NCBI GenBank assembly: GCA_964035545.1
Contig: OZ037766.1
Location: 9,972,722 to 10,036,721 of the forward strand
Origin: Bugula neritina
Lineage: Eukaryota > Animalia > Bryozoa
Reading direction: 5' to 3'
Length of the DNA stretch: 64,000 bases
This document shows, piece by piece, positions 3 to 56,991 of this stretch. The stretch's first letter is position 1. Each line of letters begins with the position of its first letter. The translations under genes were made by a program, and so were the position numbers. A model generated the notes under the pieces. That model was not told the DNA's origin. It was given only the letters and a program-made list of their open reading frames with translations, and did not search any database.

Positions 3-782
3 GTCAATTACCGTAGGCGCCGCGGACAGGCTGATAAGCTGAAGCCTAAGTTCGTAGGCCCCTACGTGGTCGTCGAGGCTATGCCCAATCATACGTACAA
101 GATTGAGCGCTCAGGACAGGTGTCTATCCAGAATGAGTCTCGCTTGAAACCGTATTGGGCTAGCCCCGGCGGAGTGGGAGAAGCCCCCCCGTTGTTAGAG
201 CCCAGGAGGCAGACAACAACGCGCGGGCGACGGCGGCATGGACCTGAATACGAAGTGGTCATACCGCGGGAAGAAAACTTGGTGAGAGAGGAGCGGCAGC
301 TTTTGTCAACAGAAGCGTGTCCGCCACCGCCAAGTCTAATTCCATCACTTCCAGAAACCGAGCCGGTTCCGGAAGTGCAAACCCCCACGGAGGGAGGGGC
401 TCCATCCGGAGAACAAGAAGAGGTGACTGCTGACGGTGAAGTAGAGACGCCATTAGAGGCCCCTACTAACGAACCGGCAAGCGTGTCACCCCCCCTAGAA
501 AGGGGACAGCGTACGAGGCAACCCCCCGCATACTTGAAGGACTTCGTATGTGACTGCGTTAAAAGCGGCACACATGAAAGTCTAGGGGAAAACCGTACGA
601 GAAAAGAATCGAGCAAATGTGGGAGTTGTCAACACCACGGAAATATCAACTTTTGTATCGGCGGAAGTAGAAACAAAATTCATCCGCCGGGTGCACAAAG
701 TCTTAATCACGCACCCCAACCACGTTGCTCGATCTTTTCATACGCTGATGCAGTCAAGAGTAGACGTGTTTCTAAGCAGTAG
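3..782 (+). CDS. pol: Pol polyprotein C-terminus (integrase tail, Pro/Glu-rich linker, Cys-rich tail), partial
   Basis: KLKPKFVGPYVV integrase C-terminal (GPY/F) motif. Near-identical to element 2 Pol until about RQPPAYLKDFVCDC. Stop TAG at 780-782. Confidence 0.93.
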   Translation, partial: VNYRRRRGQADKLKPKFVGPYVVVEAMPNHTYKIERSGQVSIQNESRLKPYWASPGGVGEAPPLLEPRRQTTTRGRRRHGPEYEVVIPREENLVREERQLLSTEACPPPPSLIPSLPETEPVPEVQTPTEGGAPSGEQEEVTADGEVETPLEAPTNEPASVSPPLERGQRTRQPPAYLKDFVCDCVKSGTHESLGENRTRKESSKCGSCQHHGNINFCIGGSRNKIHPPGAQSLNHAPQPRCSIFSYADAVKSRRVSKQ

Positions 783-806: not shown

Positions 807-1883
807 ATGTCTTACGACAACAGATCGTGGGGTGAGTTAACTATATCTTAATACGAAACTAGATTGCATCGCTCAGCTCTGACTCACTGAGTCAATCGAG
901 CTGGAGATAGGTTAGTGAAATACCGTAGTAAGAACTCAGTTTGACTTAGAGATTTTTATAATCTCATTGCAATACGGTTCTATCTGACTATTCACTATCA
1001 TTAATCTCTACGAGGTAACTGAATTAGGAGTTGCCAAGCTGTTCAAGCTGACAACACAGCAGTGTACTGTACTAACACTGTTGAAACTTTTTCAGATTAC
1101 ACTCGACCCTCTACCACCAGGGTACGGGATAGAACACTTCCCGCTCCGTATCCGGAGGACTATGCTAGTGGTGACCGGCCTGAGCCACTACGCCGCCGTT
1201 GGCGGTGGGTGTCTCCACAAACCGAAGAAGAAATAGAAACAGCCTGGGGGTCCAGAGGACGGACGAGATGCCAGATCTGTGGTGAAGATTGCGCCTCTCA
1301 CCGTTCCCTTAAACTACACGTCAATGCTCATCTCCTACTAACATTCTGCCCCTGCGGGTACAATGATGTGTATCCCTACCCCGTCACCAGACACAGAGCG
1401 GCGGGCTGTTTCCCTGGAGAAAACTATGTGGTCGACGCTAAGCTGTACCCGGAGTTCCTCACACTTATACGACCTCTGGTGAAGAAGGCCATGCTATTAG
1501 CCGTTCTGTCCTCGGGGTTCCAACGTGTGTTAGACAACGCCCGCCAACAATCCCCGTTGGTGTCTGACCGCCCTCAAATTACATACACCCCCGAGGAAAT
1601 TACATATCCAGAAGAAGGAGAGATCTCCCCTACACCGGCGAAGAGACGAACCAGGTCCCCCAGTCCACCCTTGCGCCGCAGACGGACACCGTCCCCAGAC
1701 CCAGTACGCCTGGCTACAGTAGAAGAACGCCTCCTACGATTACAAGAAGAGTTCACCCAGCTGGCACCAGATCTACTTAACACTACCACAGGACTCTTCC
1801 AGCTAAAGGGATCCGTATGCCGTATGAAACGGAAACTGCGTACATGCCAAGCCAAGCACCGGCGTGCCCAACAAGGACTCTAG
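807..1883 (+). CDS. Element 1 accessory ORF3, spliced (exon 807-831 + exon 1096-1883; 270 aa): C2H2 plus CxC..H..C zinc fingers, basic/SP-rich patch, C-terminal coiled coil
   Basis: ATG807 + 8 codons + G | GTGAGT (832); TACTAAC at 1070-1076; TTTTTCAG ending at 1095. The join G|AT gives Asp in frame with the 1062-1883 ORF, which has no ATG of its own near its start. Motifs: CQIC-x12-H-x3-H, FCPCG-x11-H-x4-C, KRRTRSPSPPLRRRR, and heptads in LATVEERLLRLQEEFTQL. Confidence 0.85.
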
Positions 1884-5319: not shown

Positions 5320-6030
5320 TAATGAAATTAGTATTACTATTAGCCTAATACTAACCCTAATATTGATAGTAATAATAGTACTAAGACTTATACGAATACT
5401 AATAGTAATACTATTACTATAACTATTACTTTACTAGGTCTAATAGTAATAGTAATACTAATAGTAAATAATTTACTATTTGAGTATTACTATTAGTATT
5501 ACTATTACTATTAGTATTAACTTCAAACATTAACTACTACTATTAGTATAACTATAAGTATACTTAGTTACTACGTTTACTCTTAGTCTTAGTAATACTT
5601 ATAGCTATACTAATACTAATAGTAATACTAGTAAATGTAATACTCAGTCTCATACCAATACTTATACTGTAATACTAATACTAATAGTAATACAGTATAA
5701 CTATTACTAGTAATACTAATAGTAATACAGTATAACTATTACTAGTAATACTAATAGTAATACTAATAGTAATACTAATAGTATTACTATAACTACTACT
5801 ATTAGACTTAGTATTACTATTACTATTAGTATTACTATAAGTATAACTATTACGATAACTATTAGTATTAGTAATACTAATGCTAATAGTAATACTAATA
5901 GTAAATGTAAATGTAATACTAATACTAATAGTAATAGTAATACTAATAGTTCTAATAGTAATACTAATACTAATAGTAATACTAATACTAATAGAAATAG
6001 TAATACTAATAGTAATTACTAATTAGTAAT
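5320..6030. repeat. Degenerate AT-rich satellite of TAGTAA/TACTAA units in both orientations
   Basis: Runs of taatagtaatac and its complement gtattactatta are interleaved, with a local duplication of a ~35-nt block near 5680-5750. Confidence 0.85.
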
Positions 6031-7770
6031 TTTAGAAGATGATGAACTCTTTAAGTTTATTTAATAAAATAATACACGAAAAAAAAAGCTGAAATTAAAC
6101 TTTGCAATCTGATTCAGTATTTCATTTATTTGATTTTATTAATATCATAATTTATAACTATATCAGTATGAGTATAACTGTAGGTATAAGTACAAGTAAT
6201 TTACTATTGAATTTGATTAAAGATTAACGCAACTTTACATAGTGATGGGGACTAAGTTTATTATTATTTATATTGTATAAATTATTGCAATAATATTTTG
6301 TTCGTTGTATGTGGTGGATATTTGGACTAGCAAGGATAAACATCCAGACAATTTTCGATGTGCATTTTTAGAAGATAACTCCAAATAATTCATTAACGCT
6401 TTATCCATTCTGCATTGTGCCCTAACAGTAATTTATTATCAGGTTATCAATGAGATGTTAAATCACGAATTTTAAAATAATTATAGCTTTTTTAATTATG
6501 CAAACCTTTTTGCTTGAAAAGCTTTTGTCAAAGTTTATTAAATTTTTCTATAGCAAAAATGGTACATGAAGATTGTTTTCAAGAATATAAAATGACAGCA
6601 ACATCTATGCTGACAATCTGTCGCTGCAACAGAAAAACACTCACATTACCTCACTAGTTTTTACCAAGTACATTAACTAACAACTGAAGTGAATATAAAT
6701 TTCAACTACTGCTGCTTCTGATTCTTTTCTCTTAGATATATAATATATTATACATATTATACAGATTGCCTCGTAACCAACATAAAATTCACCTTGAAAA
6801 ATGCCCCAAATTTATTGAATGCACAGTAATTCTTCAACTACAGCTGACCCTTATATAATTAGAAGCTAATTGGCCACAGTAATCCTGTTTTGTTTTTGTT
6901 TTCAGAGACGTTCTCTGTGATCATATACTGCATATTAAAAATATATTTTTATAAAATATGTCTTACTTGATGGCAATAAATATTGCAGATTGATATGCTG
7001 AAATCTTATGCGATCTTTATGCACAATTGAGATATTATTGGTCATGTATGCATTTTCCAAGAAAATCTAGTGCATAAATTGCTCAGAACTGTGCGAAAAA
7101 TATTTTACCTCAGTAATTTATAGCTAAATGCACTCTATTCAGCAAGTCGATAGAAGGAAATGCAAAAAACCTCATCTCCAGACCTACACAATTTCCGATT
7201 GCAATGGCCAACCCCAACTCAAAAGTGCATCCATAAATGAGGCTGCAGAGAATTCAACCTCATGACGTTTCTGTTGCACACTTGGTTATATTACTGCCCC
7301 AACATAGTAGTGAAAGCAAAAGAAGTTCCGGGTCCTTCTTTGAGCAATGATATTTAAATATGAACTATTCAAGGGCACTATCTCTAATAAATGGGAAATA
7401 AATTACCTTTTGAACTTTTAGTGCATTTAAAAAATTTTGATTGCATAAGCATTGAGCAGGTTTTACTATTGAAATTTGATCAGCATCTTTCTTTTAATTT
7501 CATGAACACAACAAACTGCTTGGGTTGATAGTTTTCATATTTTATTTGAACATGTTGCGACCTATAAATGTGAACAGTAAACATCAGATATTACACATGA
7601 GCATTTTATACATGTATTACTATCTACTGCCATAGACCAGTCAGAAGTTGTAGATATTCTTCCTTTATCTGCTTTCTTAATTTATTTGTAACAGGGTAGA
7701 TGACAAGGTACAAGCTAGAGTTCTCAATATTAATGCAGTTCCAACAACCACAAAAAGATGATTGCACATA

Positions 7771-9597
<1,827 letters not shown>

Positions 9598-19552: not shown

Positions 19553-22500
19553 ATGTCCAAAGCCATGGCCAGAAAACCCTCATCAAGAAAAGATGAAAAG
19601 AATAGAATAGTGATGCCTACTGCTGCTATTGGCTCTAAAGGAAAATATATTCCTTTGACTATTAAAATCATTGACACTGGAGAGGTTTTTGCATTGAGAA
19701 ATGTTACATCAATGATGACTGTGAAGGAACTCAAAAGTTATTTAGAATTTGCAACAGGAATTCCAGTAAATCTTCAAAGGATACATTATTTAGATGAAGG
19801 TTTGGAAACTATAAAAGCTCTTAATTTGTATATGTTTTGATAGTCAATGCAAACTACAAAGCATAGAATAATAATATAATTTACAGTTATAGCTACAATG
19901 ATAAGTGGAAATCCCCGCCACTCCTATTATCACATATTCACAATTAATAAATTATACATTAATATAATCATTTTAGGAGAGCTTCAAGAACACACTGATA
20001 TAAAATCTAATGACATCGTTGCTGGTGGCCAACTCCACATGACAATATGGCATACTTGGGTGAAGCTTATCAATGCAGTTGTAACAAATAACATCAGTGA
20101 GGTTAGTTTGTATTACTTTTAACAATTATATAATTATTATATAAACGTGAGGTACACAAAACAAACCTAGATTACTAATCGTTATTAGCCATGTTGGCAC
20201 AATGCTTTTTCCACTTAATACTCTGTTTTGGCAAATTTCTTTTTATTTAATCATTACCGCAGGAAGTTGTTGATACCTGCTGGGTATAAAAACAATTGAA
20301 GATACTAGACATGTGCTTATATTGGTCATCAAGGGGGTCAACAAACGTCAGACTGATCATCAGTTTTTTCTGTGACTGCTGATAACTTCGTTCATTTGCA
20401 TTTTTGATATGATCCTATTCTCACAATCTTCTGTTTGCCTAGAATCTGGATATATTGATTATTATTGTTTTCTAAAATTTTGCTCAAATAGTTCAGGTTT
20501 TTTTCTTCATGTTTTTGCATCTACTCTCAGTCAGGATCTTTTTAACAATGAAGCTTATGTATTGCTTCTAATGATACTATCTCTATCGTGTTATTAAAAC
20601 TACAACAACATGAAACGATCAAAAAAATATTTTTAAAAGCAAATACAAATGAACAAAAGTTATTATTTCTACAGCTTTACAGTGTTTTCAAAATATCAGA
20701 TGTAATTATTTTATTTCAACTGAATGGCTTATTTTGTAACAATCATTCTACTGCAATTTGCATATTTTGGCTCAAGCTGTTCATGACATCCACATTGAAG
20801 GTAAGAAATACTTTGAAATAAGTATAACTTGTTTTAACCTCACACATTGTAGGTGCTGAAACTTGGCGTGACACAAGATTCAAAGTATAGAACACCTAAC
20901 GCAAATTATATGAATGCAAAAGGAGTGCAAGCATGGCTGGCCGAAAGAGCCTTCATTGCATTATACGTTGCTTGCCACCGTGGCCATGCTAAGCTTGTGC
21001 AGACACTTGTTGAGTCAGGTATTTTTCAGAACTAATTCTGGTACTGTTGTTCTACTAAATAGATACTTTTACAACTTTTTTTATATGAAAGTAAGCATGG
21101 TATACTTTGTTAAGCATTTTCTTTATTAAAATCAGCGATAATTTCTATTACTTGAATATTGAAAAATATATCTGTGTATACTGTATAATATACATCAATA
21201 TTGTATACTTTGAACCAGTTACATGTCAAGAACCATTTACATGTATATTGTGGTGGCTCGTGGAGCTACCAGCAACACAATACGCAAGGTTGCGTATTGA
21301 CCCGGAACAATGTATTAGCCAATTAGCTAGGCTGTTTTATAAGTAATAGTAGCCGCTTCGCGCTACTAGTTCAGTTGAGGATAGTGCTGTAAATTAAATA
21401 GACGTGCGTATCATTACTGTTGTACATTAGATTTTATTATGTATTCTTGTATTAAAATATAACGATATCTACTCGACTTAACTCGGTGAGGTTTCTCTAG
21501 TGATAAATAGACTCTCTTGGTGACACATCAACCCTAAATCTGAAAATTATAACAGTGGTGGCAGCGGTGGGATAGTGTATATCAAAGATGGAGACTGAAA
21601 ATGCTAGAATGCAACCACCCCCAGTAGAAGGTGAGCGTAGAAATGCTGTTAATCCTGTGAATCGTGAAGGAGAAGAAGCTTATAGACATTGCTTGAAAGC
21701 TCCTACCTTTACTGGGTCGGAAGATGTCGAACAATTTATACAAGAATTTAGAGAGGTAATGGAAGTTGCTCAATGGCCGCCTAGAGTGGCCCTTATTCAA
21801 TTGCGGAGAGCGGTGACGGAGCAAGCCAAGCCGTACGGAGTGGGAACGGACGTAGACGGGATACTGGCTGCGCTGCGGGCCCGTTTTGGCACCTCCGTAA
21901 TAGACGCGAGGACCAAGCTAGAGAGATTGTGCCGCACCCCGCGGACCTCGCTGCAAGAACATGCCGCGACGGTGAAGAAGCTGGCGCAGATTGCATATAG
22001 CGATCTGCCAGCACAACACCAAGAGCGTTACACCTATGACGCCTTTGTCCAGTCACTAAACGACCTGGGCCTAGACCATCACCTACGAGCTAAAGGGATA
22101 ACCAGAATAGAGGATGCCCTGAAGGCTGGAGAAGCTTACCTGTTGGCTACCCAAATGCATCGAGCACAAAGGAACCCACCAGTAGTTGGAGTCAGCGCTG
22201 CCAGGGCTACGACAGGCTCCGAAGCCCTCCCGCTGGAAGCCGAAGTGGACCGTATGGTAGAGATGCTGGGACAACTGGTAACCATTCTGGCCGGTGCTGG
22301 CCCCGGTCGGGCCCTGCGGGTGCCCCCAACACCTGTGGGGCAGGGCTGGAGTAGCGCTGATCAGGACCAGGGACAGAAAGGACGACCCCAATACCAGGGG
22401 GCGTTAAACTGTCACGGCCCGCGGACACTCTCCCTCCCCGCGGGCCGCAACTAAAGGAGTATGGTGGAACACGCCGTCGTCTGTCCGTACGGACACGGCG

Positions 22501-25500
22501 GAACATTCCACCCGAGTGGCAGGTACCACGCAGGACTAGTAGGCCCGCACAACGGCCCAGTACCTTCTCCCTGCCACTCGCTAACCGGTTTCACCGGTTA
22601 CCTCGGGAAGAGGAGCCCGCCACTGAAATGGAGCCAGAAGGCCCAGTGGAGAGCCCCAAACCCCGCCGGCACCAACCTCGCCGCCGGAAGCCCCGTAAAC
22701 CACGGGTGAAACCCCCGCCGTCCTGTCAATTCAGGACAGCACATGCGGGGGGGGGTGAAAGTACAACCACATGGGGAGAGCTATTTTCTACCCGGAAAGG
22801 TGGCTGGCAACGCCGTCACTTTCCTGCTCGACTCCGGTTGTACTACCAACCTTCTCAGTCGTAGAGTCTTTGAGGCACTGCCCCGCCGGGACAGGGATAG
22901 AGTACGACCGTATACTGGAGAACATGGCACCCTGGCAGACGGGTCATGTATCCCCTTTTATGGTATTATCGAGCTCCCTGGGCGTGTCCGAGATCAGGCT
23001 GTACAGGAGACCTTTATCATAGGTCAACTGGAGGAAGATGCTATCCTCGGAATGCCCTTCTTGAAGCAACACCAGTGCCGAATAGATTTTAGTAAGTCGG
23101 TGGTGCTGATGGGCGGGCGAGAACTCGCCTGTGTGGATAAGTTTGGGCGTCCTCTGGTGGGCGGTGTTCAGGTAGTTCGAAACTGCACCGTACCCGGACG
23201 CTCCAGAGCTACTATCCACTGCCGAGTGAACAGCAACCGGATAGCCAGGCTCGGGGTCGTTGAAAGCGCGCACGAAAAGATCCAACTCGCCAGTAGTTTA
23301 AACCGACTAACTGAGCGAGGGGAGGTCTTAGTGCAGTGCGTCAACCCCTTTACCGAGCCCATTGAGCTCCCAGCTGGGTCAATGCTGGGCCGGTTCCATT
23401 CCGTCCAGGAAGAGGACGTGGGCCCGTCGCTGGGTGACGCGACGGAGGCACCCCCTCGACACTCTATTCAGGGACGAGGGGCAGTCCCAACACATCTCCG
23501 GGAGTTATACGAAACAGCCAGTGGCGGCTGCGCGAGTAACAGAGAACGCCAAGCTATGGCCAAGTTACTACGCGACTACGGTGATGTGTTCAGCAGCGGA
23601 GAGCATGACGTGGGACTGACTGGAATTGTCAGACACGAAATACCGCTGACTGCAGGGACAGTCCCTGTCCGGCAGCCCACGCGCAGGCTGGGGCCGGAGA
23701 AAGAGAAGGAGGTTAGCCGACAAGTACGGGATCTTCTGGACCGGGGACTGATAGAGCCCGCTCATAGTGCGTGGAGCTCGCCAGTCGTACTGGTCCGGAA
23801 GAAAGACGGCAGTTGGCGGTTCTGTGTGGACTACCGCAAACTCAATAGCGTAACCATACAGGACGCCTACCCTCTACCTCGTATTGACGAGTCATTGGAC
23901 GCCCTAGCCGGCAGCAAGTACTTCAGTACGTTAGACTTGCTAAGCGGCTATTGGCAGGTTCCTCTGAGTCCTGACGCCCAAGAAAAAGCGGCGTTTATCA
24001 CACGGGACGGTTTGTGGAAGTGGAAGGTGCTGCCCTTCGGGTTAACCTCCGCCCCAGCCACCTTCCAGAGGCTGATGGAACAAGTCCTTAGCGGACTCCA
24101 TTGGAAGACACTGCTGGTCTACCTCGATGATGTCATCGTAATCTCTCCAGACTTCGAGACACATGTCAGTCGTCTGCAGGAGGTTTTCGAGAGACTCCGA
24201 GGTGCCGGTCTTAAGCTCAAACCTTCCAAGTGCGCTCTGTTGCAGCCGGAGGTCAAGTACCTGGGGCACGTTGTCGGTCGAAACGGCGTGGCAACGGATC
24301 CCGAAAAGGTACGGGCAGTAGAAGACTGGGTCACCCCCCAAGACTTGACCGGACTCCGGGCTTTCTTGGGGCTGGTAGGGTATTACAGGCAATACATACC
24401 AGACTTTGCGGGCATAGCCCAGCCGTTAAACCGGCTCACCGCAAAGGGAGTGACGTGGCAGTGGACTCCAGTCGAACAAGGAGCGTTCGACCGCCTCAAG
24501 GGCTGCCTCCTAACGGCGCCCATCTTGGCCTACCCAGACCCCACTCTGGAGTACATCCTAGACACGGACGCCAGTGACCAGAATGTTGGCGCTGTGCTGT
24601 CACAAGTGCAGGAAGGCCGAGAGGTAGTAGTAGCCTACTACAGCAAGTCTCTCTCTCCCGCTGAACGAAATTACTGCACTACCCGCAAGGAGCTGCTGGC
24701 AGTAATCAAGTCAGTGAAGCACTTCAGACCATACCTATATGGCAGGAAGTTCCGGCTGCGTACGGATCATGCCTCGCTGATCTGGTTGTGCAGGAGAGCA
24801 GAGCCCTCTAGTCAGGTCGCCCGGTGGCTCGAAATCCTAGCTGAATTCTCATACCGGATCGAACATCGACCGGGCAAGAGACACAGCAATGCGGATGGGC
24901 TGAGTCGCCGACCGGACGGAGGTTGCAAACAGTGTCTCAACATCGAGAGGAGGGATGGAGGTCCCCCACGATGCGAGTTGGAGACGCTGGCTCATCACGG
25001 AGCACCGTTTGACTGGGATCAAGGTCAACTCAGGCAAAGAGTTGATGAGTCCCCGGAGGATGTACAAAACCTCCGCGCCAACCCTGTACTGGCCGGTAAT
25101 GTTCGAGAGCTGAAGAAGCTCCAAGAAGAGCTGCCTGGAGTCGTGGCAGACATATACCGGGCCAAAAGGGAAGGGCGACGACCCAGCGAGGAACGCATAC
25201 GACAGGGATGCGCCGAGTTCCGGCTATACTGTCAGCGTTGGGACTCACTGCGGATCGGGCAGGATGGGTTGCTAACCATCTCTCTAGCTGCCAGCGGCAG
25301 ACACCCGGAAAGGAAGAGGGTAGTCTGCCCCACAGCCATCCGCCGTGAGTTGATTTGGGATACTCACAAGCAGGCCCACGCAGGGGTCAAGCGAGTGATA
25401 TCCAAACTACGACTCCGGTGGTATTGGCCGCAGATGGAGCGTGACGTCCGGCTCAGAGTCAAACAGTGTGAGATCTGCCAGGCCAGTAAGCATAGCCGCC

Positions 25501-28500
25501 CCCCTGGTGAAGCAGGACGGCGGAGGCTATATGCTGGTAGGCCCTGGCAAGTAGTCGCTGTAGACCTGGTCGGACCCATGCCCCTGACCCCCAGAGGCAA
25601 TAATTGGATCCTAGTACTAACCGACCACTTTACTAGGTGGGCGGATGCTCTGGCTATCCCAGATGCATCAGCCCCAACAGTGGCCAGGGCGCTAGACCAA
25701 CATGTATTCTGTTATTTTGGGCTTCCCGAACAGATACACTCTGATCAAGGCGCTCAATTCCAGTCTCAACTGATGAGCGACCTTTGCCACCTCTGGGGAG
25801 TAAATCAGAGCAGGACCACCCCCTACCACCCTCAAGGTAACGGGGTGGTGGAGCGCAACAACCGGATGCTAGGTGATGCGCTCCGGAGTCTCCTCCTTGG
25901 ACGAGGTCAAGAGGAATGGGATACGGTGTTGCCGCAAGTCATGCGTGCATACCGTAGCACCCCACACACCAGTACTGGTGAGACCCCAAACCTCTTGATG
26001 CTCGGGAGAGAGACTCGTGTCCCTGACCATCTCACCTATCACGTTCCAGAGCAAGACAACTCGGTTCACGAGTATGCCAGTGAACTAGTGGAACGGATGA
26101 AGGCCGCACACGATATACTGCGTCAACAGCAGTGGAAGGTGCGGCACGAAGATTCCGATGAACCACCTCTCTATCAAACGGGAGATAAGGTGTGGATGGT
26201 CAATTACCGTAGGCGTCGCGGACAGGCTGATAAACTGAAGCCTAAGTTCGTAGGCCCCTACGTGGTCGTCGAGGCTATGCCCAATCATACGTACAAGATT
26301 GAGCGCTCAGGACAGGTGTCTATCCAGAATGAGTCTCGCTTGAAACCGTATTGGGCTAGCCCTGACGGAGTGGGAGAAGCCCCCCCGTTGTTAGAGCCCA
26401 GGAGGCAGACAACGACGCGCGGGCGACGGCGGCATGGACCTGAATACGAAGTGGTCATACCGCGGGAGGAAAACTTGGTGAGAGAGGAGCGGCAGCTTTT
26501 GTCAACAGAAGCGTGTCCGCCACCGCCAAGTCTAATTCCATCACTTCCAGAAACCGAGCCGGTTCCGGAAGTGCAAACCCCCACGGAGGGAGGGGCTCCA
26601 TCCGGAGAACAAGAAGAGGTGACCGCTAACGGTGAAGTAGAGACGCCATTAGAGGCCCCTACTAACGAACCGGCAAGCGTGTCACCCCCCCTAGGAAGGG
26701 GACAGCGTACGAGGAAACCCCCACCGTATTTGAAAGACTTCGTATGTGACTGCATTAGAAGCGGCGCACATGAAAGTCTAGGGGAAAACCGTACGATAAA
26801 ATGTTGGAGTTGTGAACCCCACGCAAATATCAACTTTTGCGAGGGCGGAATAGTGGGAGGAATTAATGCGCGTAAAGCAAATAGTTCCGACCTCGTGCCT
26901 CAGAAACGATGCTCAGCCTTTTCCTATGCTGACATCGCCAAAGGCAGACGTATCTCACAACCAGCTCCAACCTTACCAAGAACGTTGAGTATGGACATTA
27001 ATACCGAGTTCCCAGGTAAGCCAGTATAAGTCTTGTATTCCTATTCATGGAAACGGGCTCGATGCCAGTAAATTCTGAACTAATTCAGCAGATTGAATCA
27101 GAATTACTGGGAACCACGTTTCATGTGAATGACGATGAAGACACTGTAATGGCCGACGGTCTGTTAGACCTGGAGCTAGACACTGTTCTTGGTCAGTCCA
27201 CACATGATTCATCAGTTCCTCGAGTGCATTCCAAAAGCTGTGACTCTCAGGCTAGCAACGGTCGACAGTCACTAGAATTATGTTGTAAAGATCCACCGCG
27301 ATCTAACAATAATTCTACTTTTGTAGACACACTCGCGCCCGTCTCTCCGGGCATGCCTTCCCTAGAGATGGCGTGGGACCCAGAGCCGGCCCCAACAACC
27401 TCTACAACCAGGCAACTGCCACCCCAGTTGGAAGCAACCTCCAACTGGATTACCCCTGCCACAGAGAGAGAAATCAGGACCCATCAAGGAGGTGAGAGTA
27501 ATCGTGAATGCAACCTCTGCCAGCAGCGATTCACAACCCACCGCAGACTAAAAGTACACTTGCCGCAGCACTACATCACCACTTTCTGCCCTTGCGGAGA
27601 ATATAGCTACAATCGTGATTACCTATTGCGGCACCAACGTACTATGCAGTGTTATCAAGGGCATGTCTATGAAGTAGACGAATCATCCTATCCTGCCTTT
27701 CTCAACGCCATCAAACCACTCATCACTGACTCAGCTCGGCTATCTCGCCTGGAGCAAGGCTTCCCTTCCCCGCGACCCATCATCTCTGGAGCCGCAGATA
27801 AACCTACACAGTCTACTAACTCTCCACCTCACAGTCCTCTACGCATGCCTCATACCTTTCCTCGTGTCGTACTACAGAGGGTAGACACAAATGCGTATAC
27901 ACTCCCTCCTCCCCTTCCATCCTCAGAGCGGAAAAGACATAGACAGCCGACTTCCTCTCGCTCGTCCCCCTGGGCCCGCAACCTACGTGAAGTAGAAGCT
28001 AGGGCACACGACTTGGAGCAAGAAGTGTACAGACTGGCCCCACGGGTGCAGGCTGCATCCAGTGAACTCAAATATTTACAGGAGTCTATTAAACGCATGA
28101 AGCGTGCGGCCCGCAGTTAACTTGAGTCTACCTACAATTCCATACTACTCTTCCCCTACCTCTCTGTGGCATTCCCTACCGTAATGGTGGCACGTACTCT
28201 ACATGTAGATAGGACCTTCTTTTGCTTATTACTTAGTGTGCACGTTATATATACCTGTATATTTTTATCAGTTGTTGTTTTTTTGTATATACTTTTATAC
28301 TGTTCTCTTACCCCCCCCCCCAACGAAGTATACGTTTTTTTATGTGAATTTTATTTTATCAGAAAGTGGGCTTTCTGCTGGAGGGGGCAGTGTGGTGGCT
28401 CGTGGAGCTACCAGCAACACAATACGCAAGGTTGCGTATTGACCCGGAACAATGTATTAGCCAATTAGCTAGGCTGTTTTATAAGTAATAGTAGCCGCTT

Positions 28501-31500
28501 CGCGCTACTAGTTCAGTTGAGGATAGTGCTGTAAATTAAATAGACGTGCGTATCATTACTGTTGTACATTAGATTTTATTATGTATTCTTGTATTAAAAT
28601 ATAACGATATCTACTCGACTTAACTCGGTGAGGTTTCTCTAGTGATAAATAGACTCTCTTGGTGACACATCAACCCTAAATCTGAAAATTATAACAATAT
28701 GTTAATAGCTTTTGTTTTGCTCAGACTCTGAAAGTGATATTAATCTATATTTATGTTATAGGTGCTAATGTGAATATGAAAACGGTTTTAGGAAGAACTC
28801 CTTTGCATGTTTCAGCTGCCCAAAACAGAGGTTCAATAGTTGACATTCTTCTGAACAACGGTACACAGTATATTTCAGAATCAATTTTTATCTTTAGCTA
28901 CAATACATGTAATAATGTAGCTAAACACTGTCTACAGCACACTCTCGCTTTCAGAATTTGATGATTAATAATAAACCCCTATGCTTTGCATTATGGGTAG
29001 AGATATCAAGGATGATTATGGTGTATAAAATATGTTATTAAAGGTGCTGATGTGAATGAGGTGGATAAAATGGGAGATACCGCTTTGGCTATAGCTGAGC
29101 GTTTTGAACACAAAGATGGGGCAAGGCATCTCTTTTTATTCCGCTGGCAAGTACGAGCAGCGCAGGCTGAGAAGGTTCCGGAAGTACCATTGTACTACCA
29201 CCAGCAGTGCGACACAGCTAATCCGGTTTGGCTGGCCGGCACTCAGGTAAGACAGTAGTACAGATGCTACATGTGAGCTGATTGGCTAACAATGCACCAA
29301 TTATAGCTTGTGTCTTGGTGTAAAGTTGGTAATGAAAATTAAACAAAATGTAACACAAATATTTCAACAGAGTTTGTATTATATGGTGTCAAATTTAACT
29401 GCAGTATGCTATTCCTAAATCCAAGAGAGTTTGTGCAACATTATATAATGGAAAAAAAATTCTATATGGTGCTGCTCCTGAATCTTAACAATTAAATGTT
29501 CTATGCACAAGTTTTAAAGTTTTTTCAGCACTTTTGAAAATGTTCTTTTTAAGTTTCTCTACCATTTGTGATGAGCTGCCACACACAATCAACCCATTAT
29601 CTAATATTTTATCAGGGTCAGCTTTATTATGCTGCCAAAGATAAATTCACCGGTGAATATGGTGGCACTGGAATCGGGGCAGTACCCGCTCTTACCAAGC
29701 CTAATGATGTTCCAATAGGCAAGTAATTTTTACTAAGCATGGTATAGGTTTTATACAATTCTCATTAAGTGAGAGAAGGGCATTGTAAGGTGCACTTTCG
29801 AGGTTGTTAGCTGGCAAGTAGTTTAGTACATAACATGTTTTTATCAGAACAACCTTCTGGTACTTTTAAAATATTACAAGTTGTTCATATTAGCCAAAAG
29901 TGTGTTATCTCAATGTTCATATTAAAATAGTATTTCATCTTTAACTCTACATAACTTAATGCAATGCTTAATACCCCTTCGCCTAGTGGCTATTAGCCTT
30001 TATGTAACTGGAAATAAGTTGGAAAAAGCATTTCAATAGATTTTTAGTGAGCATTTATGGTGGTATAAATTAACTACCAGTACATAGATAATGGTTTTGT
30101 TACTATGAAGGGCTCTGTGTAAATTTATTAGAATATTATAGTATATACAACTTCTCCATCATTTACATAATGTGCTACATGAACTTTTCTACTGTACCTG
30201 CTCTACTTTTAAGAGATAAATAACATCTGTTTGATTTTAAAAAGAGGAAAGAACGAAGTCGAAAATAGATTACGACATGTGGCTATCTCAGAAGGAAAAA
30301 GAAGATGAGATGAAAAATATGGCAGTGAAAAGAGAGAAAGCAGCCAAGAAGCTGGAAGAAGAAAAAAAGTAAGATTAGTACATTGCATGCCTGCTGAGTG
30401 GGTGGGTGCTGTGTATACAGTATTGTTGTTATAGTTATTCAAATTGAACAAATTGTGATGGCTAATTCCCTTTTGTCACTGCAAAAGCAGTTAGCGCAAT
30501 TAACACACAAATATAATAATGGAGTCACATTTCCAAATTGGGATGACAACTTCACAGATGCAATAATTGATGTGAAATATATCAGCTGATACGATGCTTA
30601 GATTTTAATTTGCATCTGCCTTTTATTAGCTGATGCGCTTTTATTTGCAAGACCTGAGAATCTAGTTTATTTATACTTACTATATAAATGTTAGACACAC
30701 TAAAATCTATCTGAGCAATAATGGCATTTAGCATGTAGTTAATAATAAAAAAAGGTTGCTATAGCATGTCACTGTTTTTCAAAACTTCCATATGCTCTAA
30801 TTATTAAGTTTAGAAAATATCAAAACAGATCGAAGCTATATTCTGGTTTGATATATTTCATGCGAGAAATAATGAATTGAGTTGAAATTAATATAAAATA
30901 CTCGGTTGCCATCTTTTAGTCAAAGCCATGACTACCTTTTTTGCTCTAAAGATGGTAATAAAGGATTTGTAATGCATTTCTAATCTGTTGTACTTTAGGA
31001 TAAACAAGTGGTTGGCTAGAAAATATATTCTGTTGTCTAAATCCAGACATTCAAAATGAATATATTCAGTACATTGATTGTATACTATAAAATATCTGCA
31101 AGGTATATTACGCTCTTACTAAAACCTGCTTGTTACTAACTTGGCTTTTTGCTGTTTGACATTATACAAGAAATCATAATTTATGTTCGCATAGCCTTTA
31201 AATATATTTAAGTGTTCTTTGTTTTACTATACGCTTATTTATTTTACATGCTATGTTTTAATTAGCTTGTTTTGACTTATTTAAAATGACTACTATATTA
31301 CAGTTGAATGCCTTTAATTATTTATATTAGAACCACTATTATTTATTATCAAGCATTTGGATATCATCAAGTATTAAAAATTGTAGCATAAGTTTAAAGT
31401 TTTTTTCCAAAACCTATGCTTATAATGCTATCTTGAAGTTTAGATGTTTGGCTTATGTTTTATTTCCAGAGCTTTAATGTTGCTGACATATAAGGTTCAT

Positions 31501-42100: not shown

Positions 42101-45100
42101 TTGTTCACACATGTTCTATCCGTTATTTATGCTGCTAAATATCTTGTAGTAATAAAACAGTATCAAGAGTATGTGGAGCCTGATAGCTCTTCGTCTGCTC
42201 GACTCACAGCTCCTTCTGCTGGGGATGAAGCTGATCAAGTCATACTTCCTCTGGGAGAAAATGTTCTCACTCATAACTTAGGAATACCACTCATAATAGT
42301 TATCACAAAGGTACATCACCTCATAATAGTTATCACAAAGGTACATTATTTATTGAGGTTATACTAGGAACTGTCACTTTGAAACCACTTTTGTATGCTT
42401 CTAAAAGCAGCACAAGCTGTCAATATTACATTGAATTTATTTACTGACAGTTCGTGCTGTTAACAATGTATTAGCAGAAAAGTCTACTTGCAGACCTCTT
42501 TGAATTTACCCACTGCTTTAGTTCTAAAGTATTTAAAGGTGGCGAAATTTATAAATATTAATTTTGTTAGAGAGTACCTTCAACGTCATGTACGCTCATT
42601 TCTGTTTTATTTTCTACAAATATTACTGCTTTTAACTTTCTCAATTTTATTGGCTGTATGTGGACTCCATAGTTTTAACTAATGCCTTTCAGACTATAAC
42701 CTATAGATAATAAAAGTGCAGTGCAGCAGAAATGCATCATGCAAACCAATAATTAGATTTTACTGTAAATGTATTGGTACATTGTAGAAATAATGTTTCC
42801 AGAATGTTTATGGTATATCGTTTTATAGAGTGATGCAATCTCAACATTAGAAAAAGAGATGGAATATAAAGAAGAAAGATTTGATTTCATTCAACAACAC
42901 ATCAGGCAGTTGTGTTTGAATTGTATCCTTTTCAAGCTTCCTTTAGAAGTTTAATTATACTATTTAACGTTATATTAATTTCTGTAAACACACCAGTTTT
43001 TATTTACCATTTCTTCAATATAGTTGGTGAGTACGCAATATACTTCATAGGATGTTTCCTTAGTAGAATATATATAGATGGTGCTTCATTACTTTACGTA
43101 TCTGTGAGAGAGGAGAAAAACTGTGAACTACTAAGTAAGTACATCGCCCACAGAGTTTATGGACTAGAGTTTACAAGCTCTCCCTCGGTGGTGGATAAAG
43201 ATGCTGTGTTTGTGTAAGCTATATACATAATTCAGTTGCAATACTTTCTGATGCTTTATTTGTCATGAAATTCACAGTTAGAAGCATGTATATGAAAGAA
43301 AATCTTCCAAGGGCCAAGTTATATTTAGCAACAACCGAGCAATTATTAGAGTAAATTTAATTCGCTATTGTGTGTCAGATACAATGGCTCTACACTTAGA
43401 AAACTGGACCTTTTCTTGTTTTCATGCATTGAGTTATAGTTGTTTATTTTTCCTTTTTCTATATTCTTGAAGATCCTGCAAACTTTTTTTGGGAAGCCGT
43501 AAGAGATAGACAGTAGTTTATTGCATTGAAAACTCATGCTTGCTTATGACAAATGCTCTCATTAAAGTATTGGGCTAATTTTGAATATTTTGGATGTTAT
43601 TTCATGCCCTTACCTCAAAAAGACAGTGCCTAGTAACTATTGCAAAAATTCATATCTTGTAATTTTTCCCATGTAATTAGGAAAAGATATTTTTTTCAGC
43701 CCATCAGGATGGGATTCTGAAAAGAAGATTGGAATTTTATCTGAAAACTTGATGACCATCAAACCTGAAGAAGAGTTTGAGGCAGTAATCAAGCGTCCCC
43801 CGGGCATCAGACGACCAGCTAACCGAGACGGAGAAGTAGCAGCTGAGGATCATCAGGACTTCCTATCTAGATGTCATAATTTACTGGCTAAAGGCAAGCA
43901 ATAGACTCTGATATCATAGCTTGCTTGTTACCCTTTTTATTATGTAGTACTTTGTGGAATCTGCGGTTAGATGTAATGGCTTTATTTCCTCTTGAAATAT
44001 TTTACTAGATCAGCCACATTATTAAAACTTGGTACTTTGGTTTAGAGACACACATATATTTGAATTCATGTCTCTCTTCAGCCGAATGGAGGGCTGCCTT
44101 GAGTTTACTCTCTCATGTCTGTTTGTTTGTTTGTTTTTATTTTGTCATAGTCGGGGAAAAAATTAATTGAGAAAAAAATAAACAAAATGACAGGGCCTAT
44201 GGCGCAATAGCACTGTAGCTAGTCGAGGCACCGAGCCATGAATGGTTGACAGTTATATAAGATTTTTGTTTAGGTTTTTGGAAGTTTTAGCAACTTAAAA
44301 AGTATTATTTTTTTATCTGGAAATTTGCCATTAGATGGTCTCTCAGGGCAAGTTCTAAACAACATTACTGTATTATTTATTCAGAAGCTTCAGCCTCGCC
44401 TGCTGTCCCTAGGATTGATGCCAACAGCTCCCCTGCTGCTTCAAAGCCTCCGAATAAAGTCAGAGTTGGTGCTCCTAGTGGCTCATCAACACCTTCTCCT
44501 AAAAAGGTTGAGTATTTTAATGTTGCTTTACTGTATGATATAATAATTGTTATTATAGTAATATACTAATTGTTTTTATTATAGTAATATGCTAATTGTT
44601 TTTATTATAGTAATATATTAATTGTTTTTATTTTATTATTACAAAGTTTTTTTAAAGTATTTTTTGATGCTACTATCTTTAAATTTAATGTTAATGGTAG
44701 TCTCTTGCATCAAGTGTTCTGATTATGTAACAGAGCTACTATACAAATGTATATTTATATCTAAAGGGGTATCGTGTTTGTGTGAATGTAAGCAGTCACC
44801 CCTATCGTTGATAGTATCTGATGCTGTCGATTGTAGGCGTCTGACTCGACCAAAGGAGTCAGCAGTCAACAGGGAGAAACTGTTCTGGCCAACTTCTTCA
44901 ACAGTCTGTTGACAAAGAAGACGGGTAGTCCAGCTAAAGCCTCGCCAGGTAGGGGTGAAGGTCGCTGCTGTATACTACTGCTAACTTTGTACTGCTGTGT
45001 ACTACTGCTAACTGTGTACTACTGCTAACTGTGTACTACTTCTAACTATGTACTATTGCTAACTGTGTACTACTACTAAGCGTAGAGCCACACGGCGGCA

Positions 45101-46068
45101 AGCGGGAAAACCCGTCCAGGCTAAAAATGGGGCGTGGTGTGCGGATTTTCATGCGGGTAGCATGCTGAGCTGCAAGTGCAGAAAGCTCATGCGGGTTTAA
45201 TTAAATTTGCTGATTACCATTTAGCGAGCACACTATTTTTATTTCAATTCACGTTTTAGCCTTAAGCGGACTGAATTGAAACAGTTTCATATAGTTTGCA
45301 TTGCCGCTTTTAAAATAGCCTAAGTCACTTTGCTGATGACGTAGATTTAAAAACAAACATCTGTAGACGAGCAGTAAAGTTAAACTCCAAGATTATTAAC
45401 TAATAAATTTCTGCACTCAACACACACATTGTGTGGAAGGTCGTTCCCGAAATTTGGACTCGCACGGGGAATCCAGCGTCGTGTGGCCCTACGCTAACTG
45501 TGTACTACTGCTAACTGTATACTACTGCTAACTGTATACTACTGCTAACTGTGTACTACTGCTAACTGTGTACTACTGCTAACTGTGTACTAATGCTAAC
45601 TGTATACTACTGCTAACTGTGTACTACTGCTAACTGTGTACTACTGAAAGGGTTCTGCCAATGCATTAAACCTCACAACATTACGAGTTTTCACTCCTTT
45701 ACATTATATGCTCTCTTCTTATCATTTGTTTGACTATGTTGGGTAGTCAACACTTCTTTCCTTATTTGTATACTGTTCGAGTGTTCTTATATTGTTAGCT
45801 TTAACAATTTATTTCTTATTGCATTTGTCCTATAGTCAATTTTTTAACATACACGAAATACTTGATATTGATAACATAACATTTTCATTCTGCCAGCTCT
45901 TTAAAAACTTTTGATGAGGGTAAGTTTGCTTGTGGACCTAATATTGCTCATAAAAGATGTTATGTTTTATGTTGTTGTTGAGTTTTGTTTTTTTTTTGTG
46001 TTGCAGATTCAAATGCCGCCAGAGCGGAGTTAGATAGGATGACAAGAAATAAATCTGCAAACAGTTAG
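39199..46068 (+). CDS. DYNC1LI: Cytoplasmic dynein 1 light intermediate chain; exons 39199-39293, 40663-40733, 41098-41214, 41660-41890, 42150-42310, 42829-42922, 43078-43213, 43700-43893, 44385-44506, 44837-44948, 46007-46068
   Basis: P-loop [73 protein letters not shown] (adaptor-binding helix), AELDRMTR. Confidence 0.96.
41387..41456. repeat. 19-bp tandem repeat (TTGCTGATGGTGTTGCCAA), about 3.5-4 copies, intronic
   Basis: Directly visible. Confidence 0.85.
42923..43077 (+). other. U12-type (minor spliceosome) GT-AG intron in DYNC1LI
   Basis: 5' site GTATCCTTT; branch-like TTTCCTTAG at 43055-43063 close to the 3' AG with no pyrimidine tract. Splicing restores CLN-Y-GAS. Confidence 0.85.
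44968..45647. repeat. 17-bp minisatellite (ACTGTGTACTACTGCTA)n interrupted by a MITE
   Basis: The array is visible on both sides of 45080-45494. Confidence 0.9.
45080..45494. mobile_element. Non-autonomous TIR element (MITE, PIF/Harbinger-like), 415 bp
   Basis: Termini GCGTAGAGCCACACGGCG and CGTCGTGTGGCCCTACGC (18-bp terminal inverted repeat, 2 mismatches). TAA is duplicated at 45077-45079 and 45495-45497. Confidence 0.85.
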
Positions 46069-50400: not shown

Positions 50401-53318
50401 TTCGATAAAGAATGAAAGCATGCAATACTCGTCATAGGTGAGCTGAAGGTACCTGGAGAGGACTGTTACAGAGATGCCCATAAAGAACATACCACAGAAT
50501 CCAATTAGTACAGCGACTATTTGACTGCACACATTCACTGGAGACAGATCTCCATACCCTGTAATACAAACTTACCGTTAGAGACTTATAGAGCATGAAA
50601 TAAGCCAGTATACTGTATACTCATTAATAGCAGCATAACCAGATAATACAAGATATAATGGTTAATGATCTAGCAATGGAGAAATTTCAAAACCATTACA
50701 ATTCTTCTTATAATTTTACCAAAATAGTTGTAAGTTTATCGGACTAGACCTACTTTTTTAATTGAAATAAACTAAATGTTTGAAAAACTTGAATTGATGA
50801 AGCTTTGAATGGTCACAGATTTGATAAAATTTAGTATAATAAAACATAGACTGGCATAGGACTGACACCACAATTATATTGATGTGTCTGACCAGTTTTA
50901 AGTAAGGCTAATAGCTAATCATTGACATTTTAGCTTGACATTTGAAGATATTTCATATTTACCCAGAGATAAATCAAAAGCAGTATAAATGATACAAAAA
51001 CCAGCGTAATATCATTAATTCACTAACTAATGTTGATGCTTGTATCTTATTTAATATAAGAAGATATCATATATTCATATTTTATATGCAAGTTTCGACA
51101 AACATCATTAGTCATCACTAAAGAGCTTTTCTGATTCCCCAAGACACATTAATGAAAAAAGAAGACATAAAACAATTTAATCAAAAGATGTAGGATATAG
51201 GATTGTAATTTCTCTGAGTTTTGATATAAATGAGTTGCATTTCAAGTTTATTCCCATTAGACTTGTATAAGACATAGGAGTTAAGTTAATATGTATTGAT
51301 AGCTACTATCCATTCATCCTACACATCCAATAGATATTGTATATTATATATAAGTGCCTTTTTCCTACGACATAGCGTACGACAAATTACAAGAGTGTTA
51401 ATGTTAGGCTCTTTATTTCAGGCTGTTTTTTACTTTACTTTGCACATCACTAAAACTGTAATAATAATGATATCCAAAAACTGTTATCTGTTATTATCTA
51501 CAATTTCTGAAACTTGTGACAGATTTTTAAAGTTGCTTGGTGAAAATTTCAAATAGAATAATCTTAAGAACTATTAGAATTATGCATTGGCAGCTAAGAT
51601 GTTTATTATTACAGAATTAAACTCAACTGTTTATTATATCTGCAGTATGAAAATTTGTGTAAAAGGAGTTGCTCTGTCTTGTTTTTAAAATGTTTTTAAT
51701 CCTTAATCTATATATCTATGGGACACCATTGACACTATATTTTTATTAGGTCAGAGAAAAATTAGAATATTACTATCAAAGTTGATTTGCAGAATTAGTT
51801 CTCAACTGACCAATAAGCTTTCTTAGGTAAACATAAGTTGATTAGCGTTAGTTGACTTTGCTTATGAGTCAGTAACAATTTAATAGTTTTATCTGCAGTT
51901 ACTGCTGTTGTTTTTCAAGTTATAACAAGTAAGTAAATTAGTTTTAGTTTAATTGATGCAATAATTGTGCTGTGTTATTAGTGTTCAAGATATATTATAT
52001 AATCTCATGATTATATTATGATGCAATATATTACATAAATGCCCTAATGGGAGTTCATGAAATAACTGCCACAAGTGTTGGACCTAGTGATTCAATCACA
52101 TGCTTTAGATTAGTTGTGCAAATGAAACGCTTTGACTAGAACTTCATTAATTTTCTTCAATGTAACTAGCAATTCTGTACACTCACTTTTAAGGGAATGT
52201 TGAAAATAGGGTTGTGAGTTTTGCATAATCTATGACTCCTAATCTGCATCCAAATCAATAGGCATCATAGGAGAGGTGTTGATTTGGTAAATCAATGTAA
52301 TAATTCTTACATTACTGTTGAAGCTATAAAACATTATAATAATAAGCTCATCCTTTCGAAAATATTGTCATAGAAAAAAGGCAGCTAACTTACCTACAGT
52401 GAAGAATGTGATATAGACCACCCACAGAGAGTTATTAAACTGTGATATTTTCTTGTCAGATATATAGATGCACCATGCCGCAGTTGTAGTGCACATCAAA
52501 GCTACTAGACCCAAGAAGTAGCCTTTATAGATGGCCATATAAGATTTGAAGATAAATGTGAAGTTATATTTGGTCTGTGTTAAAGCTCCTAAACTGTAAC
52601 TTAGCATAGTTCTAAAAAGTCGGCTGTGCAGTACAACAAACCTAGCCACCTGGTAAACTCTAACAAGCATAACGATAGACAGCACCGCATCTATTTGACT
52701 AATTTTAATGTCCTTGCCAAAAGAAGTCTTTTCCACGAGATCTTCATCTCCGTTCTTTGTAAAACCAATTGTTGTTACATTAGATGCCATTGTTGAGCTC
52801 AGCATTTCATCTATTGTCATATGTTCTGAAACTAGAGTCTGCTTCCATGGGGTCTTGTATCCAACGCAAACAGGAAATGTATGTGGAATAGTTGCAAGAG
52901 TTTCGAGAAAAGTAAAGACTATTCGATGGGGGTTTACCAGCAAGACATTATAAAAGCTACTGATATTTCGTAAATTTCCAAATATCTCCAGTTGCACATA
53001 ATTGTAGATCCATAGAAACAAAATAAGCAGACCAGTGAAACTAGTAATAGCAGTTTTCATTGCGAGAGACGGTTTTGAGCATGCAGTGTACATATCTGAT
53101 ATCACCAACTGGTTATTAACCACCATTATTAGGATACTACCCAATGAAAATATGAACAGGCATTTTGAAATTGCCAATCGTAGTCTAAGTAACCTTTCTC
53201 TTCTGTATCTTCGGATTCTAAGCTTGCTTTCATCTTGCGACTCTTTAACCTCGTATCGGCGCATGGTTGCCGAGACCTGGTCTGCGATGTGATCCATTGT
53301 TGCTGAATCAGTACTCAT
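47433..53318 (-). CDS. Divergent small-conductance Ca2+-activated K+ channel (SK/KCNN-like); exons 53318-52394, 50558-50209, 47648-47433
   Basis: Six hydrophobic segments and an S4-like MLVRVYQVARFVVLHSRLF. The pore LWVVYITFFTVG|YGDLSP is rebuilt across the splice. S6 is followed by a calmodulin-binding-like LQKKLRESSAIIIQKAWKQYK and a C-terminal coiled coil. Confidence 0.88.
49567..49659 (-). repeat. Interspersed repeat fragment; inverted homolog at 61508-61599
   Basis: The reverse complement GTTGAAATTTTTGCGAGAACATA...TAGAACACAGGCTTTTCTCAGTTTCTCCATTACTGCACCTATCTCT aligns with 61508-61599. Confidence 0.85.
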
Positions 53319-54656
53319 TTTGAGGGATGTGTTGACTTGGTGCTATTGGCTACCAGTCCTGCACTTCATCTGTCTGTGTGTATAATAGCTGTGGGCACTT
53401 GTAGTGACAGCAGGTGTATGGAAGTAGCTATCACTGTTTAGCACATTTGCAGCCAGTAATTAAAGATGCATCTTCCACACTAGTTGTTCTGAAACACCAC
53501 AAGTTACTGCCTTTTAGAAAACTAACTGTAATATTAACAAGTGATCAGCTTAGAAATGATTGTTACCAGGTAGAGATTAAAAGTTTTCACCTTTAATTGT
53601 TCAAAATTGTAAGCCACATTCCAATGTAGAAAAAGCTTCTCACTAAACACGTGTCATGCATATGATATATAATGGCTAGCAATTGTTAGAAAAAATATTG
53701 AGTTACAAGAGTTATAGTTTTAGCACTAAGATTATTAAGCCAAACCAGATCAATATTTGTTCTTGAATGAATGTAAAGAATTATATTGACAAGTTTATAG
53801 GGTAATAGGCTATTAGTTATCCACCTTATGTTGAGTTTATGGATTATAATGCTGTAAGACTGAAAGATAAAAACAGTTTTTTGTTTACATACATGTTTGA
53901 GCAATTGGTGTCAAAATAAACATCAGATGATGCTGGGATTTATATAATAGTTTGCACTGCAAAATCCTAATGCAGTATTTTAATGATATGCAAACAGTCT
54001 ACCACTATTAGTAGGCTACTTGTAAAAGAATATAATCCTAAAATATCCTTGAATATAATATATATAAGTATTTTCAAAGATAAAAACTTAGTTTATTGTT
54101 TTCTCTTTCTAGCTATAAACTGCATTTTACTCATATGTGCCATGATGAAGTAAGTTTACTCTATACTTTTTTCTATATACAGAAAAAATGTGAATATACT
54201 TACAATGTTAGCTAATTGTTATCCATATCTAGGATTATCATTAATAGTCCTATCTTTTGCCCATACCTTGGCATTCAAAAATTGTAGTAACTGTGTAAAT
54301 GTAGTTTACATCGTGTATAATCTATACACTCCTGTTAATATTGATTTTAACTCCAACATCAACTCCTAACGATTGAAGCAACTATATAGATAATAGACTT
54401 GCTTCTGTGCTTTCGCTTCATTACTTTACTGTTTTCTTACTATAGAATGCATTTTTATATTTATTTGTCATGATAATGTGCACAAGTATTCCACTTTAAC
54501 ATTTAATCACGATAAAACTTAGATCAATACGAATCTGTATGACTATTAAAAGTTGTATTGCCCTTCTTAAAAAGAGAGCACAACACCTGATAAACCTGCT
54601 GTTGTATCCTAAGAAACTAACAGCTCAAAATGAGGACAACATTCAGATGCATAGTA

Positions 54657-55964: not shown

Positions 55965-56991
55965 TATATAAGTAAATAAAACACAAAGTATGCTTATATA
56001 GCTTATAGGTTGCTGTCTTCTTTTTAAACTATAAAACCGGAATTGCATGAAATGCTATCATATTACATCTTGCATTGGTATGAATTTATCAAAAATTTGT
56101 CACTTGCAATACCTATGGAGTGCAATGTAATTTCAGAAAATCTATGTAGCCAAGATGTATAATATCAATAATTGTCTTTGCTGTTAAAATACTAGCTGTG
56201 ATTGGTTAAACGCCAAAAGTGAAAATATTATGCCTACTGTGAAAATTTATAAATATAGATAAAGAAAAACAAAAATATCATAAATTTGTCATGGAGTGAT
56301 GCATTGCCTCTTATATATATATTATATTATATTTGTGCAGCGGTTCAATAATTACGAAAAGTGTTAATTTGGATTGTAGATTTGTGGAGGAGAAAACTAC
56401 AATAATGTGTGATCTCTTCACTTCCCTTACCTATATGCACACCTTTACTTATGTGACAGTTTACTGACTTGAAGATAGAAAATTTCGAAAAAGGGGAATA
56501 TATTGGGGATGGAATTGGGTATCACGTATGACTTGATAATGATTTGTTTAATGTAAAACTAGCCTGCTTGATGAAACAACATTAAACTATATAGAATATA
56601 GTTTAATATAGTTTAGTGCTATAATACACAAAAAGTCAAAATAGGTTATGGTGCATACTCCTTACATTTGAAGGTAACTCAAAGAACTTTTCTAGTGATT
56701 ATATAAAAAATGATATCAATAAGTTGGAATAAACTAAACTACTACAGTGAATGCGTGTGGCACACCTGGATCTTTTGCCTATCATTAGTCAAGGATCAAC
56801 GTGATAACAGAAAGCAGACTATATTTACTTCACATGACATCCAGATAAAGTTAGGAGTGGTGAGCTCTAAGAAATATAAGGCCAGATAAGAAATCCACTT
56901 GTTGAGAACGAGACAAACTTTACTGATATTTTTCTGAGTTCTTTGTAATGAGCTCATTAACCTGTTATATAAGCTTATAACATCTTATAAC

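Follow-up and report, generated by a model that had tools for sequence, protein, structure and literature searches.

A zinc-finger third gene under selection in a clade of Ty3/Gypsy elements and its possible regulatory role

Two Ty3/Gypsy elements and their third gene

The stretch of Bugula neritina DNA analysed here (the window; 64,000 nucleotides of contig OZ037766.1) contains a complete Ty3/Gypsy element, element 2, and the 3' end of a related one, element 1. Each has a third open frame, ORF3, between pol and the polypurine tract (1023-1883 in element 1 and, at the same place, 366 codons at 27020-28120 in element 2), as the initial annotation had reported. Their parts are:

1-2476: element 1, 3' end of a related Ty3/Gypsy element, its 5' part lying beyond the window
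3..782, + strand: element 1 pol end; identity to element 2 is 91-100% per 100 nt as far as about 600 and declines beyond
807..831, + strand: element 1 predicted small first exon, with ATG; a possible acceptor lies just before it, at 805
832..1095, + strand: element 1 predicted intron, structured, with stops in all three frames
1096..1883, + strand: element 1 ORF3 main exon (family B)
1206-1520 and 1701-1877: element 1 finger domain and long helix
2172..2476, + strand: element 1 3' LTR, 74% identical to the element 2 LTR
21249-28696, + strand: element 2, complete Ty3/Gypsy element, defined by its LTR pair and target-site duplication
21249..21554, + strand: element 2 5' LTR, 306 nt, identical to 28391-28696 and preceded by an ATAT target-site duplication
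21556..21573, + strand: element 2 primer-binding site, the same motif as in related loci L001, L003, L006, L010 and L015
21588..22454, + strand: element 2 gag ORF, assigned by position and by-eye likeness to the L001 and L003 gags
22361..22864, + strand: element 2 ORF overlapping the gag end, its frame not continuous with protease in this copy
22710..27029, + strand: element 2 pol ORF (protease, RT, RNase H, integrase and a long acidic/Pro tail)
26991..27015, + strand: element 2 predicted small first exon of ORF3 (ATG, 8 codons plus 1 nt, in the pol frame), a prediction from donor rank
27016..27326, + strand: element 2 predicted intron (supported by an acceptor-compatible residue pair), structured (from its fold z)
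27327..28120, + strand: element 2 ORF3 main exon (family A)
27446..27763, + strand: element 2 ORF3 conserved domain (W-x4-T-x3-I helix, C2H2 finger, C-x-C...H...C/H finger, VD strand, helices)
27929..27970, + strand: element 2 ORF3 basic NLS-like cluster with Ser-Pro sites
27983..28105, + strand: element 2 ORF3 heptad helix, a predicted coiled coil homologous to the helix of the structure model
28380..28390, + strand: element 2 polypurine tract
28391..28696, + strand: element 2 3' LTR, 306 nt, identical to the 5' LTR

Element 2 has the hallmarks of the Ty3/Gypsy group (Metaviridae), namely LTRs, primer-binding site, polypurine tract and target-site duplication, and its pol domains follow the Ty3/Gypsy order of protease, RT, RNase H and integrase. 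Given that its two LTRs are identical and both bordered by ATAT, it is a recent insertion. The primer-binding site is one that we take to be of the tRNA-Leu type. The gag ORF has no Pfam match, and no frame of the gag region (21588-22900) contains a CCHC knuckle, unlike the gags of L001 and L003 with at least one each. The Pol end of both elements contains a Cys/His cluster, C-x-C ... C-x2-C-x2-H-x5-C (26745-26840 and 549-656), perhaps one more zinc site. A host gene (20300-21248, 28697-29300), presumably of the ankyrin-repeat type to judge from its repeat motif, has element 2 in one of its introns, in the same orientation. Elsewhere the window holds an actin exon (7771-8775, - strand), an SK potassium-channel exon (52368-53342, - strand), two 17-nt minisatellite arrays (44961-45689 and 56971-58260) and an AT-rich 12-nt repeat region (5323-6040).

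The two ORF3 proteins are 29% identical over 275 columns (E 9e-29) whereas the DNA of their genes matches in just about 40-57 of every 100 columns. The alignment across low DNA similarity, and the motifs quoted for it earlier (WVSPQTEEEI vs WITPATEREI, the C2H2 finger, TFCPCG..RH..C and others), are thus borne out. Each protein has a pair of zinc fingers and a long helix with a basic/Ser-Pro linker between them; likewise, a structure model shows a two-finger domain followed by a linker that is disordered and by a single long C-terminal helix, in line with the architecture first proposed. The zinc ligands are C164/C167/H180/H184/C190/C192/H205/C211 in element 2 and C83/C86/H99/H103/C109/C111/H124/C129 in element 1. 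The first finger of both has the C-x2-C-x12-H-x3-H spacing of the classical C2H2 finger (PF00096), with scores of 15.6 and 13.3 bits for the two proteins that miss the gathering cut-off of 25.2 bits; the second finger is atypical, and the structural overlay of the pair on tandem fingers is weak. The suggestion that ORF3 is not an Env also holds: with a highest 19-residue hydropathy of 0.99 and 1.51, neither window protein has the membrane segment of an Env by this measure. ORF3 has no match to a Pfam env family and no fold match at E<=0.001, and its domain corresponds to no Pfam family; a hydropathy above 1.6 is seen in 7 of the 112 proteins of families A and B.

Flanking the fingers, the relatives of the two proteins show recurrent charged features. 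A basic cluster precedes the coil in 23/24 family-A and 6/50 family-B proteins, one lies at the coil end in 37/50 of the latter, and Ser/Thr-Pro sites are found ahead of the coil in 23/24 and 47/50 proteins, respectively. Acidic-hydrophobic tiles of 39 residues, counted as in 10.1101/2023.02.10.528081 but with cut-offs that are approximations, lie upstream of the domain in 22/38 family-A proteins (7.2 in shuffled sequences) and in 13/45 distant proteins (3.3 in shuffled ones), the distant set being free of near-duplicates and family-A-like rows; none is found downstream of the domain at the same cut-off. According to that source, this tile rule is correct for only 12/47 and 25/133 predictions in human proteins. 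Family B, to which element 1 belongs, is without the patch (0/4 testable relatives and none in P0002).

Distribution and selection of the ORF3 domain

Profile searches recovered 303 relatives of ORF3. Across 60 diverged representatives seven of the zinc ligands are nearly invariant and the eighth is C in 37, H in 19 and neither in 4, so that the retention of all eight noted for the window proteins holds for these two and is relaxed at one position family-wide.

An integrase scan yielded 22 related metagenome loci, of which 11, standing for about six families, have at least 1300 nt of DNA 3' of the integrase core. All 11 encode a two-finger module after the integrase, in support of the gene being element-borne. 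In six it is the same domain (E 1e-18 to 1e-22): L001 and L002 have it as an in-frame fusion to Pol, and L007, L008, L012 and L016 as a separate ORF. The module of the other five (L003, L010, L011, L013 and L017) is divergent and was recognized by eye except in L010 (E 0.001); an alignment of four divergent loci matches the domain profile with 88% probability and E 3e-6, to which a generic likeness among fingers could contribute. In L003 (1125-7631) and L010 (1067-7384) a dUTPase is further encoded, placed between RNase H and integrase; the divergent pair of fingers, with an acidic tail, closes their Pol ORFs, which exceed 2100 codons. In-frame fusion to Pol is seen in L001, L002, L003, L010 and P0272, as against the separate ORFs of the window elements; P0272 and P0286 have integrase and domain within one ORF, and in P0237 the domain is joined to an integrase-tail motif. 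In L001 a leader of about 560 nt (284-845) with several splice-like signals separates the primer-binding site from gag.

Over the finger and coil regions dN/dS is 0.08, 0.09, 0.11, 0.27 and 0.37 in five close pairs, values that support the selection surmised from the conserved ligands and argue against neutral decay. The pair L011/L017 gives 0.59, on eight changes, and synonymous sites are saturated between the finger domains of the two window proteins. ORF3 is thus a real gene, borne by the elements, selected, clade-wide and unnamed.

Predicted splicing and exchange of ORF3 with the LTR

Both elements have, after pol, a small predicted exon with an ATG and a strong donor. By a simple home-made score, the donor at 832 ranks 1st of 128 GT sites and that at 27016 joint 1st of 405; among AG sites the acceptor at 1095 ranks 4th of 151 and that at 27326 joint 1st of 533. 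All four are in phase 1. The main frame of element 1 is without a Met ahead of the fingers (none before residue 157) and every frame of its intron contains stops, so its ORF3 needs an upstream start. A residue pair compatible with YAG is present at the acceptor in 42/43 family-A and 21/22 family-B relatives against a background of 10-14%, counts that relatedness inflates, while the first residue of the pair varies (L, S, V, I). From these signals splicing of ORF3 is well predicted. Of the earlier proposal that the gene is spliced, the conserved splice signals stand; no junction was found among the contig joints listed from one RNA run with sparse contigs. Another phase-1 donor, as strong as that at 27016, lies 14 codons into gag (21631), and by analogy with CERV, the ORF3 product of the C. 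elegans element Cer1, a form of ORF3 with a Gag leader is possible.

Two features conserved in family A lie within the element 2 intron, namely an ATG in frame (27047) and a patch of acidic and hydrophobic residues (about 27056-27220); in about 26/43 family-A relatives the intron is open from the conserved Met. Its conservation in this family equals that of the fingers, with substitutions that look neutral in kind (-0.42 vs -0.5 +/- 0.3 simulated), as opposed to those in the fingers (-0.11 vs -0.6) and the coil (0.13 vs -0.4). The family-A intron may thus be under dual constraint, with long and spliced forms both possible. Both introns fold better than every shuffle (z of -3.76 for 27016-27321 in element 2 and -2.83 in element 1), and each ends in a hairpin beside the branch point. 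Per-codon conservation shows no relation to the predicted pairing (rho 0.06, n=93), and the introns have no Rfam match and no evident sequence in common. The inner stem of a hairpin in the element 1 intron (872-906) is formed by two inverted AP-1-like words (TGACTCA/TGAGTCA); it could act as a DNA enhancer or as an RNA stem.

Comparison of the two elements reveals a sharp switch: 1-600 aligns with 26197-26796 at 91-100 matches per 100 columns, and 600-2476 with 26797-28696 at 40-62 through ORF3, as low as for unrelated DNA, and 74% in the LTR. The switch near position 600 of element 1 points to a recombination point between subfamilies. With a near-identical pol tail joined to a diverged ORF3 and LTR, these two parts appear, on the sequence comparison, to have been exchanged as one cassette between lineages on a common pol. 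Loose contig ends on element 2 that resemble the element 1 continuation, as matched by eye, are present in both sequencing runs. In run X2 the summed contig depth of pol is several times that of gag and ORF3, a weak hint that pol is common to more subfamilies than gag and ORF3 are, and one X2 contig jumps over 26778-28356, as would a copy devoid of ORF3.

Possible roles of the ORF3 protein

Self-encoded nuclear regulators define the complex retroviruses. The view that the arrangement seen here was undescribed is not supported, as CERV (PMC10309623) and the rotifer non-env ORF3s (PMC5408684) precede it: a non-env regulatory ORF3 is known in Ty3/Gypsy elements, and what looks new is a two-finger/coil protein apparently unrelated to CERV. 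CERV, the one characterised self-encoded regulator of a Ty3/Gypsy element that we found in the literature searched, occupies the same place, with pol on one side and the 3' LTR on the other; according to PMC10309623 it has 517 aa with H, M (a C4-type loop) and GTPase-like G domains, an architecture that the window proteins do not share, and it is described there as having no obvious homologues outside nematodes. By description ORF3 is set apart by its 260-360 aa, its C2H2 plus C-x-C finger pair and its fusion to Pol in related families, and it looks like a different protein. The spliced CERV mRNA includes the Gag N-terminus (PMC10309623), for which the in-phase donor at 21631 is a candidate counterpart in element 2. 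Tas/Bel-1 of foamy viruses (PMC3185757) is likewise encoded 3' of the structural genes and exerts positive feedback on its own promoters, as we propose for ORF3; it differs in belonging to Retroviridae that keep env, and its DNA binding and internal promoter are demonstrated whereas those of ORF3 are putative. sORF1 of the Drosophila MDG1-group is a nuclear accessory protein of env-less Gypsy elements with its function described as open, but is about 110 aa, upstream of gag, unspliced and predicted to be a helix-turn-helix (PMC11952523). Bdelloid rotifer LTR elements have a non-env third ORF in the env position like ORF3, coding for DEDDy exonucleases or GDSL esterases rather than fingers (PMC5408684), and in Oikopleura Tor the ORF3 mRNA arises via a gag-start donor and an internal promoter but encodes a membrane glycoprotein unlike the window ORF3 (PMC4402516). 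Neither the domain nor a zinc-finger ORF3 of elements of this kind is described in the literature searched; prior annotation is possible in Repbase, Dfam, GyDB, subscription journals and supplements outside that search.

From its parts list, the best inference is that ORF3 is a nuclear, oligomeric, nucleic-acid-binding regulator. Tas has an acidic activation region, and the acidic tiles of ORF3, together with the apparent exchange of ORF3 and LTR as a cassette, lead us to prefer, tentatively and at somewhat less than even confidence, a Tas-like DNA-binding self-activator or anti-silencer. Starting from an existing gene that is under selection and carried by the elements of several families, a short first exon from just after pol or from the gag start would be spliced to the main exon; the basic/Ser-Pro linker would allow nuclear entry under phosphorylation control and the helix would dimerise the protein; the finger pair would bind the element's own DNA, at a site in its LTR or internal region; and the acidic-hydrophobic patch of family A and many distant members would recruit co-activators or counter silencing as Tas does. 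Because the predicted intron of family A contains the patch, it would, more speculatively, distinguish the unspliced from the spliced form. Against this reading are the lack of the patch in family B, the low success rate of the tile rule, the dN/dS of L011/L017, the precedent of CERV as an RNA exporter and the weak structural overlay. Common 8-mers of the LTR and internal regions (9 and 6) show no excess over shuffled sequences (about 6), and there is no clear TATA box or core-promoter motif ahead of the internal ATGs. C2H2 fingers bind RNA and proteins too.

An RNA-directed role would make ORF3 a CERV- or Rev-like export or splicing regulator that oligomerises on the structured intron upstream of the acceptor and frees unspliced gag-pol RNA. 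We consider this rather unlikely, if still a serious contender: CERV, which exports RNA and is dispensable for transcription, has the same position as ORF3, together with Gag-start splicing, a Cys finger, a zipper, an NLS and proline-directed phosphorylation (PMC10309623), and the top-scoring phase-1 donor in gag, the folding of both introns with a hairpin beside the branch point, the family-A intron conserved like the fingers without conservative-substitution bias and the Ser/Thr-Pro sites before the coil all agree with it. It is opposed by conservation that does not track pairing, by introns with neither an Rfam match nor evident common sequence and by the absence of an identified export signal, and it leaves the acidic patches unexplained. 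The fusions to Pol in several families are easier to explain by a role in integration, which the integrase-tail motif of P0237 also favours: ORF3 would extend integrase at its C-terminus and tether the intasome to DNA or to chromatin, and would have turned into a separate spliced gene in some lineages. The integrase C-terminus of chromoviruses bears a chromatin-directed chromodomain, whose position matches the fused forms, though it is a different domain and ORF3 is often separate. We regard such a module as improbable, given the stop-delimited ORFs of both window elements and of L007, L008, L012 and L016, the 29%-identical ORF3 versions on a 95%-identical Pol tail, and acidic patches and splice signals that would be superfluous.

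Least of all do we favor a captured host zinc-finger gene with no replication role, or a decoy directed at host proteins in counter-defence, although the domain also turns up in annotated, uncharacterised genes of Watersipora subatra and B. neritina, in some cases in tandem and with isoforms. The purifying selection on element copies and the presence of the module in every testable family run counter to this. When 30 relatives were looked up by name, five clusters had NCBI names, uncharacterised or generic C2H2 except for one 'hypothetical' (carriers: W. subatra XP_067940963/4 and XP_067944745; B. neritina EB796_000763 and EB796_000764), and four more had a 'hypothetical protein' label from JGI only. 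In an unrooted 53-row domain tree the six host-annotated domains lie among element-borne ones and need at least two changes (three on the best tree), and a two-domain W. subatra protein is sister to the clade with both window proteins (SH-aLRT 97). Our reading of this topology is repeated domestication by the host; capture by elements would fit as well.

If ORF3 is a regulator, a second family apparently unrelated to CERV would mean that regulatory complexity arose repeatedly outside Retroviridae; were it a true transactivator, it would be the first DNA-binding one of a Ty3/Gypsy element in the literature searched, and a small protein-target pair for studying transposon escape from silencing. 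A wider and doubtful extension is that this Gypsy clade, widespread among invertebrates, is an independent 'complex' retroelement, with its own sequence-specific zinc-finger transcription factor, LTR-cassette exchange, a toggle between Pol-fused and spliced forms, a splicing-switched patch and several bryozoan domestications. The domain may also be a source of lineage-specific zinc-finger genes in bryozoans. One or two copies of the domain are found in P0134/P0277, P0205, P0269, P0278 and P0171, which are annotated bryozoan genes apart from one unnamed protein; by eye P0205, P0269 and P0278 have a common N-terminal motif, which suggests a host gene family across two genera.
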